DNA of 28,049 nucleotides from a virus (taxonomy: Duplodnaviria; Heunggongvirae; Uroviricota; Caudoviricetes): IMG/VR virus record IMGVR_UViG_2597490083_000007; one strand, 5' to 3'. Below, one piece after another: positions 23,019 through 24,825 of the stretch. Made by a program: the position numbers and the translations under genes. The notes beneath the pieces were generated by a model. That model was not told the DNA's origin. It did not search any database and saw only the letters and a program-made list of their open reading frames with translations. Position 1 is the first letter of the stretch; every line of letters starts with the position of its first letter.

Positions 23019-23225
23019 ATGAACATTTATTTCAGAATAGTTATATCACTGGCAATTATCGCATGTATTTACGGATTAATCGTTCCGGCCCTCATATCAA
23101 TGAAGGATACGGTAGCAGTGATTTCTGGCTTTGCTCTGGCGTGTCTGACCCCGCCCTGCATTTATGCCATTTATAAGGGTCTTTCTTTTTCTAAGGATAA
23201 AAGGGTAATGACTCCAACTTACTGA
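23019..23225 (+). CDS. Small predicted two-helix membrane protein, 3' end disrupted by IS1
   Basis: AGGAGG Shine-Dalgarno 3 nt before the ATG; two hydrophobic segments. Native reading ends ...FSKDKR at 23203; the final six codons (VMTPTY) come from the IS1 terminus. Confidence 0.5.
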
Positions 23226-23722
23226 TAGTGTTTTATGTTCAGATAATGCCCGATGACCTTGTCATGCAGCTCCACCGATTTTGAGAACGACAGTGACTTC
23301 CGTCCCAGCCTTGCCAGATGTTGTCTCAGATTCAGATTATGTCGCTCAATGCGCTGAGTGTAACGCTTGCTGATAACGTGCAGCTTTCCCTTCAGGCGTG
23401 ATTCATACAGCGGCCAGCCATCCGTCATCCATACCACGACCTCAAAGGCCGACAGCAGGCTCAGAAGACGCTCCAGTGTGGCCAGAGTGCGTTCACCGAA
23501 GACGTGCGCCACAACCGTCCTCCGTATCCTGTCATACGCGTAAAACAGCCAGCGCTGACGTGATTTAGCACCGACGTAGCCCCAATGTTCGTCCATTTCA
23601 GCGCAGACAATCACATCACTGCCCGGTTGTATGCGCGAGGTTACCGACTGCGGCCTGAGTTTTTTAAGTGACGTAAAACCGTGTTGAGGCCAACGCCAAT
23701 AAAGCGGGCGGTTGCCCGGCAT
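23219..23722 (-). CDS. insB: IS1 InsB
   Basis: 167 aa; ...[42 protein letters not shown]... Confidence 0.9.
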
Positions 23723-23916
23723 CCGACGCCATTCATGGCCATATCAATGATTTTCTGGTGCGTACCGGGTTGAGAAGCGGTGTAAGTGAACTGCAGTTGC
23801 CATGTTTTACGGCAGTGAGAGCAGAGATAGCGCTGATGTCCGGCAGTACTTTTACCGTTACGCACAACGCCGTCAGTAGCGGAACAGGAGGGACAGCTGA
23901 TGGAAACAGAAGCCAC
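23641..23916 (-). CDS. insA: IS1 InsA
   Basis: 91 aa; [43 protein letters not shown]... Confidence 0.9.
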
Positions 23917-23997
23917 TGGAGCACCTCAAAAACACCATCATACACTAAATCAGTAAGTTGGCAGCATTACCTATTCTGTAGAATCTAAGGATAAAAG

Positions 23998-24825
23998 ATG
24001 AAAAAAGTTATTCCTGCTTTAGCCCTTGTTCTGCTGACCACCGGACTTGTCGGTTGCGATCGCGTTGAGCCTGGTAATGTTGGCATCAAGGTAAACAAAC
24101 TGGGCGACGATAAAGGCGTCGGAGAAGTGGTCGGTGTTGGGCGCTACTGGACGGGATGGAACACTGAGGTTTACATCTTCCCGACCTTCAAACAAATGAA
24201 GACCTACGATGAGCCATTCAGCTTCCAGATGAGTGACGGTACAACCATCGGCTATCACATCGGCGTGGCCTACAAAGTTGATCCATCCAAAGTTACCACA
24301 GTCTTTCAGACCTACCGCAAAGGCGTGGACGACATTACCGACACCGACCTGCGCCAGAAGATAGCCGACGCACTCAACCGACTGGCCAGCAAAATGACCA
24401 CCGACAAATTTATCGACGGCGGCAAGTCTGAGCTGCTGGATGCAGCTCTTAAAGACATTCAGGAAGAAATGACGCCCATCGGTATTCAGGTAATGAGCCT
24501 CTCATATGTGGGTAAGCCGGAGTACCCGCCTACTGTTATCGACAGCATTAATGCCAAAGTCACGGCGAACCAGAAAACCCTGCAATGCGAGCAGGAAGTA
24601 AAACAGCGCGAAGCGGAAGCCAACATGTTGCGCGCGGAAGCTGCCGGACAGGCAGATGCGATTCGCACAAAAGCCCAGGCCGAAGCCGATGCTATTCGTT
24701 TACGCGGTGAAGCTCTGCGCCAGAACCCAAACGTTATGGAGCTGGAAGCCATCAACAAGTGGAACGGTACACTGCCGCAATACATGACCAGCGGTGCCAA
24801 CACACCATTTATTCAGGTTAAGTAA
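23998..24825 (+). CDS. SPFH/band-7 (stomatin/prohibitin/HflKC-like) domain lipoprotein
   Basis: 275 aa; signal peptide with lipobox LVGC; C-terminal region ...IGIQVMSLSYVGKPEYPPTVIDSINAKV...AEAAGQADAIRTKAQAEADAIRLRGEALRQNP... shows the SPFH core followed by an Ala/Glu-rich coiled coil; AAGGA Shine-Dalgarno upstream. Confidence 0.75.
   Translation: MKKVIPALALVLLTTGLVGCDRVEPGNVGIKVNKLGDDKGVGEVVGVGRYWTGWNTEVYIFPTFKQMKTYDEPFSFQMSDGTTIGYHIGVAYKVDPSKVTTVFQTYRKGVDDITDTDLRQKIADALNRLASKMTTDKFIDGGKSELLDAALKDIQEEMTPIGIQVMSLSYVGKPEYPPTVIDSINAKVTANQKTLQCEQEVKQREAEANMLRAEAAGQADAIRTKAQAEADAIRLRGEALRQNPNVMELEAINKWNGTLPQYMTSGANTPFIQVK

Follow-up and report, generated by a model that had tools for sequence, protein, structure and literature searches.

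The DNA analysed here, referred to below as the window, is a 28,049-nucleotide stretch assigned to a tailed virus (IMG/VR record IMGVR_UViG_2597490083_000007). We focused on positions 23019-24825, which hold a small open reading frame (ORF; 23019-23225), a copy of the insertion sequence IS1 on the opposite strand and a 275-codon ORF (23998-24825) encoding an SPFH-domain lipoprotein. SPFH proteins, a group that includes HflK/HflC, prohibitins, stomatins and flotillins, are now known to assemble into closed membrane-bound cages. An initial annotation, made from the letters of the sequence, had read the two ORFs as a phage-borne pair, consisting of a small protein with two transmembrane (TM) helices and a 275-residue SPFH lipoprotein, whose stop and start codons would overlap once IS1 was removed. 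Profile searches, structure prediction and comparison with IS1-free relatives uphold this description in each of its parts. Furthermore, genome comparisons show that the small hairpin protein and the SPFH lipoprotein make up a conserved two-gene accessory module of tailed phages, which is common rather than rare.

The small gene has 62 native codons (23019-23204, plus strand); in the window its frame reads on into IS1 as far as 23225 and thereby gains the residues VMTPTY. Its product matches PHROG 1130 ('membrane protein', E=7e-24), and AlphaFold2 (AF2) models it as a helical hairpin (mean predicted local distance difference test score, pLDDT, 80) with helices at residues 3-26 and 31-61, separated by a conserved four-residue loop, S27-M-K-D30 (23097-23108). 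Both ends of the hairpin carry positive charges, and P23, S27 and V34 are invariant across 18 hairpin relatives. The conserved loop follows the pattern P-x-L-[IV]-S-x-[KR]-D-[TD]. No Pfam family matched the hairpin at E<=1, NfeD (which was tested in the 18 relatives as well) and T4 Imm included, and an identity as either NfeD or Imm is therefore rejected. The hairpin profile recovered 572 cluster representatives (50% identity) at E<=1e-3 among 1.84 billion proteins.

The larger gene (23998-24825, plus strand) encodes a protein of PHROG 200 ('lipoprotein', E=6e-114), in which residues 22-208 match Pfam Band_7 (PF01145) with 108.2 bits against a cut-off of 23.6 (E=6e-31). The equivalog models are far from being reached, with 23.9 bits against a cut-off of 134.4 for HflC (TIGR01932) and 22.3 bits against 159.4 for HflK (TIGR01933). 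A signal peptide leads into the lipobox L17-V-G-C20 (24046-24057), followed by Asp21; the segment MKKVIPALALVLLTTGLVG-C20, read directly from the sequence, agrees with the rule [LVI][ASTVI][GAS]C, and the protein is thus a predicted lipoprotein and putative Lgt/LspA substrate. Cys20 is invariant in 20 relatives. The SPFH1 and SPFH2 domains span approximately residues 19-175, followed by a long coiled-coil helix (178-242) and a conserved C-terminus, KWNGxLP...PFI; in the AF2 model (pLDDT 78) these appear as a beta-rich part (19-94), an alpha/beta part (96-175), the 65-residue helix 178-242 and a low-confidence tail. Foldseek against the Protein Data Bank (PDB) placed HflK/HflC first (7vhq, E~1e-13), followed by erlin, prohibitin, stomatin, flotillin, QmcA and major vault protein, and the alignments to the HflK/HflC, erlin, prohibitin, stomatin and QmcA cages cover ~250-300 columns at E values of 1e-13 to 1e-8. 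Profile-to-PDB sequence matches were HflK, PHB2, HflC and QmcA. The modelled architecture thus shows a complete set of the parts of a cage-forming SPFH protein, namely SPFH1, SPFH2, the long coiled-coil helix and a C-terminal cap segment. One residue sets the window copy apart: position 197 (24586-24588) is Cys here and Arg in 19/19 aligned relatives (R197C). Cys197 is common to the Shigella flexneri allele on at least 1000 contigs, and the protein sequence is identical to S. flexneri Q7UAC9 (Q7UAC9_SHIFL).

Conservation of the gene pair in tailed phages

The structure of the locus without IS1 can be read from close relatives. An IMG/VR record, L011, has no IS1 and matches the window at 99.8-99.9% identity to either side of the insertion site; its positions 1-2500 correspond to 20702-23203 of the window and its positions 2487-5825 to 23984-27322, the two alignments overlapping by 14 bp. 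Relative to the empty site, which reads ...TTTTCTAAGGATAAAAGATGAAAAAAG, the window is therefore longer by 768 + 26 bases. Likewise, a megablast search of 22900-25000 against complete E. coli genomes returned many loci that are short by exactly 794 bp (IS1 + 26 bp). E. coli SCU-106 has the same empty-site sequence as L011, and its 62-codon gene ends ...AAA AGA TGA on the ATG of a gene annotated as 'SPFH domain-containing protein'. The junction in the IS1-free copies is ...AAAAGATGAAA, with stop and start overlapping as ATGA. Both this overlap and the intact 62-codon ORF are present in all close IMG/VR relatives that include the upstream sequence (79/79).

Orthologues of both proteins occur in the Shiga toxin (Stx) 2e phage phiP27, where the SPFH protein, L05, is 96.7% identical and the hairpin 85% identical to those of the window. 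The phiP27 pair lies between the repressor and xis/int genes and has the same ATGA overlap as the intact form of the window module, whereas in the window IS1 separates the two genes, the operon context is gone and the SPFH protein has R197C. The hairpin ORF is unannotated in phiP27. L05 is labelled 'putative serine protease', which we reject, since Pfam found only Band_7 and no protease domain; the name appears to have been carried over from the annotation of SPFH-NfeD operons.

Far beyond these close relatives, a tblastn search found the SPFH gene in 491 phage records, including N4-like phages, Vequintavirinae, Ounavirinae, Bruynoghevirus, crAss-like and jumbo phages, and haloarchaeal viruses. 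The pair as such is also carried by Stx2a phages, by Klebsiella and Pseudomonas prophages and by strictly lytic N4-like and Vequintavirinae phages. The adjacency that had been expected of IS1-free relatives persists down to ~40% SPFH identity, virulent phages included. Among distant phages the hairpin can be recognised by the motif P-x-L-[IVF]-S-[AMS]-[KR]-D-[TD], and an ORF bearing it lies just 5' of the SPFH gene, usually with a 4-bp overlap, in Klebsiella phage Pylas (N4-like), Pseudomonas phage vB_Pae_U2, Stenotrophomonas phage Piffle and roseophage DSS3_MAL1. In Vequintavirinae (VIK251) one gene stands between the two. The association also holds in the reverse direction: starting from four divergent hairpin proteins, a Band_7 gene follows each within 0-1 genes. 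In virulent phages the module is found among early and nucleotide-metabolism genes, and in temperate phages in the leftward early operon, downstream of a cI-like repressor. As a separate observation, the intervening ORF of the Vequintavirinae type (L005 1275-1439, L106 2688-2852 and L108 2701-2856) encodes a soluble product of 51-54 residues, which some records call a transcriptional regulator.

The two genes have also been joined into one. In-frame hairpin-SPFH fusions are present in two unrelated lineages. The first, of 347 residues (L112 3001-4044; P0126, and also P0242, P0243 and P0247), is found on at least 14 contigs, among which its sequence varies in several ways. The P0126-type junction has A6 instead of A7, and therefore a one-base slip switches between two proteins and one. 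The second fusion (P0346, 360 residues) is distant and independent, its SPFH part being only 36% identical to that of the window. In the fusions the C-terminus of the hairpin is followed by a basic linker and then by a signal-peptide-like helix, a layout that works only with a periplasmic loop and therefore fits a hairpin with both termini in the cytoplasm (N-in/C-in).

Possible roles of the module

Among known systems, HflK/HflC come closest to the phage SPFH protein. They share its whole-chain fold (SPFH1, SPFH2, long helix and C-terminal segment), they are its best matches in both Foldseek and PDB-sequence comparisons, and the SPFH domain of the phage protein is predicted to lie on the same, periplasmic, side of the inner membrane. 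However, identity is ~17%, far under the family thresholds; the phage protein is predicted to be anchored by a lipid on Cys20, whereas HflK and HflC use an N-terminal TM helix; and the phage has a single SPFH gene, whose product is presumably a homo-oligomer, in contrast to the K/C hetero-pair encoded by two adjacent paralogues. Unlike HflK/HflC, moreover, the phage protein has a phage-encoded, 62-residue hairpin as its partner. The latter arrangement recalls SPFH-NfeD operons (QmcA-YbbJ, YqiK-YqiJ and the archaeal stomatin pair PH1511-PH1510), in which the SPFH gene is likewise tightly linked, and often translationally coupled, to the gene for a small membrane partner; indeed, the QmcA-YbbJ complex (8z5g) is among the fold matches of the phage SPFH protein. 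Differences remain here too: the hairpin has no NfeD/OB-fold domain, the predicted anchor is a lipid, and QmcA and YqiK face the cytoplasm whereas the phage protein is predicted to face the periplasm. The module may thus be seen as a variant of the SPFH-plus-partner theme that is phage-borne, lipid-anchored and probably periplasmic, with a hairpin as partner.

Our preferred explanation, to which we assign a probability of roughly 55%, is that this conserved module has an envelope-directed role in infection, the window copy being a likely relic. The hairpin would insert N-in/C-in, exposing its conserved S-x-K/R-D-T/D loop to the periplasm. The lipoprotein, for which inner-membrane retention is predicted because of the Asp at +2, would be held in the inner membrane with its SPFH domain in the periplasm, on the same side as that of HflK/HflC. 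It may then oligomerise into a ring or dome over a patch of membrane, with the hairpins as a membrane-embedded partner whose role would be akin to that of NfeD for QmcA, or of the TM helices for HflK/C. Such an assembly could corral or shield inner-membrane components during infection, and its most probable purpose would be to block DNA entry by superinfecting phages or to stabilise the energised membrane, rather than to act as a lysogeny-specific switch. We favour an envelope role because the module occurs in lytic phages, among early and nucleotide-metabolism genes, as well as in the early-left operon of temperate phages.

Superinfection exclusion is a possible form of such a role by analogy. 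The exclusion factors Imm and Sp of T4, Llp of T5, Cor of phi80/N15 and SieB of lambda are small envelope proteins encoded in early or accessory regions; Llp and Cor are lipoproteins and Imm is a two-TM inner-membrane protein. The likeness of the module to them is a functional analogy; no sequence relation was detected either by Pfam (for the hairpin) or by PADLOC, and to our knowledge none of these five factors contains an SPFH domain.

Several observations weigh against our preferred explanation. The AF2 model is of a monomer, and ring formation is suggested by the fold relatives. The Asp at +2 follows an E. coli rule, and distant homologues have Ser, Glu or Asn at this position and are sometimes annotated as outer-membrane lipoproteins; by analogy, outer-membrane vesicles of Pasteurella multocida were found to contain an HflK/C-like protein of prophage origin (PMC9872710). 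Searches of PADLOC-DB v2 returned no match at E<=0.1 for either protein of the pair or for three neighbouring proteins, which neither supports nor excludes an exclusion role. At least 1000 S. flexneri contigs have the SPFH ORF in intact and identical form, which could mean that it is still useful, contrary to the status of a relic. Finally, Erwinia phage Fifi318, Pseudomonas phage U47, a crAss-like phage and Kuttervirus PhiSH19 have the SPFH gene without this hairpin family; in all of these except Fifi318, other small TM ORFs adjoin the gene.

The Salmonella phage PhiSH19 deserves a remark of its own. An unannotated ORF of ~70 codons (L114 1935-2156, minus strand), encoding two hydrophobic helices and a strongly basic loop, stops there 3 bp before the gene of a distant SPFH lipoprotein, and looks like a different small membrane partner in the same position. 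A neighbour of this SPFH gene is labelled 'superinfection exclusion protein'; it is a soluble, acidic protein of 106 residues, its annotation is doubtful, and we have not used it as evidence.

A bolder and rather doubtful version of the envelope-directed role holds that phages of many lineages encode their own periplasm-facing SPFH cage, made of the lipid-anchored SPFH protein and its two-helix partner, which would enclose a host inner-membrane machine, either FtsH or a DNA-entry channel. If true, this would be a general, previously unrecognised way in which phages control proteolysis or superinfection at the inner membrane.

We ranked three other explanations, beginning with modulation of FtsH, followed by a lipoprotein that benefits the bacterial host and by a factor in lysis timing. 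According to the first, the module is a mimic of HflK/C: a periplasmic SPFH cage of phage origin would bind or enclose FtsH, alter the turnover of CII/CIII-like proteins and bias the lysis-lysogeny decision. Lambda keeps cIII, the gene of an FtsH inhibitor, in its leftward early operon, and the temperate pair occupies the corresponding place, in the leftward early operon 3' of a cI-like repressor. HflK and HflC are the best structural and sequence relatives with solved structures, and the predicted periplasmic orientation is that of HflK/C. The same idea has been published for other phage SPFH genes, together with the objection that obligately lytic phages carry them (PMC10269572; PMC8540360). 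This objection, raised in PMC8540360, applies with force here, as many obligately lytic phages, for which no choice between lysis and lysogeny arises, carry the module, and its spread in N4-like phages, Vequintavirinae, Ounavirinae, Bruynoghevirus, crAss-like and jumbo phages argues against a lysogeny-specific role. Moreover, the scores of 22-24 bits fall far below the HflK/HflC equivalog cut-offs of 134-159 bits, at ~17% identity, and the partner is a 62-residue hairpin rather than a second SPFH subunit. We therefore regard modulation of FtsH as unlikely.

The second, a surface or virulence lipoprotein of lysogenic conversion, seems improbable to us. The protein would benefit the bacterial host, as a TLR2-active vesicle lipoprotein or a protectant against envelope stress, and would have been kept in Shigella for this reason. 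Its intact, identical ORF in S. flexneri and the ipaH effector gene in the same remnant are consistent with this, as is the above-mentioned Pasteurella multocida prophage protein, which is involved in TLR1/2 signalling and mouse virulence (PMC9872710) and offers a parallel by analogy. A -10-like TAGAAT 15 nt after a TTGGCA at the IS1 junction would, on inspection of the sequence, make a conceivable outward promoter, but the spacer is only 15 nt and the promoter scan did not flag it. Against host benefit, the Asp at +2 predicts retention in the inner membrane in enterobacteria, R197C falls at an otherwise invariant position, and the family is common in lytic phages of non-pathogens, in archaeal viruses and in marine phages. 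The third explanation, that the pair sets the time of inner-membrane permeabilisation as an anti-holin, an organiser of holin rafts or a spanin-related factor, is very improbable: a lipoprotein and a small TM protein at the membrane superficially recall lysis cassettes, and in a crAss-like phage the genes of a small multi-TM protein and a peptidoglycan hydrolase come after the SPFH gene, but the pairs of lambdoid, N4-like, Vequintavirinae and Bruynoghevirus phages are far removed from the lysis cassette and lie amid early or DNA-metabolism genes, and the hairpin relatives gave one marginal match to a holin family (E=0.058) and none to spanin families.

Phage SPFH genes have repeatedly been remarked on in genome papers, and a phage paper of 2026 calls the role of their products unclear (PMC13239085). 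The initial annotation had stated that no lambdoid gene of this kind was characterised. This stands as far as function is concerned, as our search of the literature for experiments on what phage SPFH proteins do yielded only speculation and no experimental study of this family; it does not stand in the wider sense, as L05 of phiP27 had been sequenced and annotated and both proteins belong to PHROG families. The same literature search found no description of the hairpin partner or of hairpin-SPFH fusions. What is new, then, is that a large subfamily of the SPFH lipoproteins of phages is always accompanied by a specific hairpin protein, that the two have fused independently, and that they occur in both lytic and temperate phages, Stx2a-converting phages included. 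The distribution and the fusions shift the working hypothesis away from a lysogeny-specific role, and the pair is a two-component unit open to direct expression and testing. Its interest rests in the family and not in the copy in the window, which belongs to a decaying remnant and has undergone an ordinary IS1 insertion with an odd, strain-variable junction.

The IS1 insertion and its variable junction

The IS1 copy occupies 23204-23971 on the minus strand, with insA at 23916-23641 and insB at 23722-23219 (Pfam and inverted-repeat search). Its ORFs match the Pfam families Zn_ribbon_InsA, HTH_Tnp_IS1 and DDE_Tnp_IS1; the DDE_Tnp_IS1 match, the length of 768 bp, the 23-nt terminal inverted repeats and the 9-bp duplication, which is clean in contig L117, place the element in the IS1 family. 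It entered between the last sense codon of the first gene and the start of the second, in a minority lineage of S. flexneri: the 68-residue, IS1-extended small product was found on 9 contigs, all S. flexneri, against at least 1000 contigs with the exact 62-residue product. Neither ORF is truncated, the small one keeping its native codons with six IS1-encoded residues added and the SPFH ORF being whole. The insertion thus leaves both ORFs intact but uncoupled.

The initial annotation had pointed to a 14-bp sequence on both sides of IS1, the second copy being offset from the element by 12 bp, and these observations are accurate. The 14-mer TCTAAGGATAAAAG occurs exactly twice in the window (23190-23203 and 23984-23997; the chance expectation is ~0.11 matches, even with 2 mismatches allowed), and the 12-bp spacer TATTCTGTAGAA (23972-23983) between the end of IS1 and the second copy is unique in the window. 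The accompanying claim that this is not a normal IS1 duplication has to be withdrawn. Target duplications of IS1 typically measure 8-10 bp (PMC3031569), and the one at this site measures 9 bp. Its left copy, GGATAAAAG (23195-23203), and its right copy (23989-23997) each form the inner part of a 14-bp repeat, and the canonical 9-bp state is preserved in L117. Between the end of the left inverted repeat (IRL) of IS1 and the right copy lies a 17-bp filler, TATTCTGTAGAATCTAA (23972-23988), of which the first 12 bp are the spacer and the last 5 bp stretch the 9-bp repeat to 14 bp. The right copy and the filler restore the native AAGGA, a Shine-Dalgarno-like sequence 5' of the SPFH start.

Three states of this junction were read from the 9 contigs with the 68-residue product. 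In L117 there is no filler, the end of IS1 being followed by GGATAAAAG ATG, and GGATAAAAG stands directly on both sides of the element. In L115, L116, L119 and four similar places a 21-bp filler, TATTCCTGTAGAAAATTAATT, precedes GGATAAAAG, and the 17-bp filler is shared by the window and L118 (CP004057.1). The polymorphic junctions of L115-L119 lie at about 2453-2480. The basic event is therefore an ordinary 9-bp IS1 duplication, as the clean state in L117 demonstrates, and the anomaly is a strain-variable filler of 17 or 21 bp. A single 14-bp duplication together with 12 bp of donor flank, which we also considered, is ruled out by the 9-bp state of L117 and by the 21-bp filler of L115, L116 and L119. 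The IS1 copy of the window and L118 differs from that of L115-L117 at 55/768 positions, at an identical site and in identical orientation. The junction polymorphism and the divergence of the IS1 copies suggest replacement of IS1, or gene conversion, plus insertion at the IRL junction.

Searches for a donor of the filler, using the end of IS1 plus the filler as the query, gave 0 matches in the GTDB representative genomes (where Shigella is probably not separately represented), 0 in IMG/VR, chance extensions into AT-rich DNA in complete E. coli genomes, and 13 matches in JGI metagenomes, none of them adjoining an IS1 end. The filler as a copy of nearby sequence was rejected as well: it resembles the target's reverse complement only weakly, and 57/2000 and 127/2000 shuffles score as well. 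The junction also creates the candidate outward hybrid promoter mentioned above (23958-23984), with TTGGCA in the IRL end of IS1, 15 nt, and TAGAAT from the filler. It was noticed by eye just 5' of the SPFH ribosome-binding site, and its spacer is too short for the promoter scan to flag it.

The surrounding prophage remnant

The window is a decayed, IS-riddled prophage remnant, assigned to S. flexneri by the identity of its SPFH protein to Q7UAC9_SHIFL and by an IpaH-type effector gene, and the phage origin supposed for the pair is confirmed. The element is a phiP27-like lambdoid prophage of the kind that integrates at yecE. In BLAST comparisons with L001, an intact yecE-type prophage of E. 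coli SCU-106, the homologous phage DNA is reduced to 22748-23203 and 23984-26872, flanked by two IS3-family elements. Both the repressor and int have been lost, together with most of xis and the region holding the promoter of the leftward operon (BLAST against L001; Pfam of the IS ORFs). In the intact relatives, E. coli SCU-106 and phage phiP27, the pair belongs to a series of genes, all on one strand, that separates the cI-like repressor from xis/int. Scans for promoters and terminators near the pair were uninformative, with no promoter directly upstream, and in the intact prophage the scan found no plus-strand terminator between a repressor-proximal promoter-like site and int. Because the phage DNA is confined between IS elements and the SPFH protein carries R197C, the module in the window is most likely an inactive relic or only fortuitously expressed.

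On the 5' side of the pair, the residual phage DNA (22748-23018, plus strand; BLAST against L001) comprises what is left of the preceding hypothetical gene, its 3' part, and 60 bp of spacer containing an AGGAGG ribosome-binding site. Everything further upstream, including the repressor and a pL-type promoter region, is replaced by an IS3-family element with transposase ORFs at 21549-22705 (Pfam). On the 3' side follows the rest of the same leftward early operon (24869-26872, plus strand; Pfam, PHROG and the gene order in L001), with an ORF6N anti-repressor-like gene (24869-25618, plus strand), a beta-clamp-like gene (25615-26184, plus strand) and a DUF4222 gene (26272-26550, plus strand). Homology to the intact prophage stops inside xis at 26872, where the second IS3-family element starts. 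The 189-residue product of 25615-26184 weakly resembles the DNA polymerase III beta clamp (NCBIfam dnaN, E=1e-4; Pfam DNA_pol3_beta_2, E=0.007); a clamp subunit is roughly twice as long, and PHROG 3007 gives the product a different name. In the intact SCU-106 prophage a ParE-family toxin-like gene lies two genes 5' of the pair (L001 5446-5664), in a region that is deleted in the window.

Elsewhere the window contains tail genes, an IS110-family transposase gene, four tRNA genes, and Q antiterminator and RusA genes. An IpaH-type type III effector gene with LRR_TTSS and NEL E3 ligase domains (848-2599) adjoins the tail genes of the same remnant. At 19814-20123 and 20300-21345, the four tRNA genes (Gly-TCC, Thr-TGT, Arg-TCT and Met-CAT) lie directly 3' of the Q antiterminator gene and RusA, a layout reminiscent of the Q-tRNA region in Stx phages. 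At the place where one would look for toxin, lysis and head genes, the window has the IS110-family transposase (17917-18897) and then an FI packaging gene.

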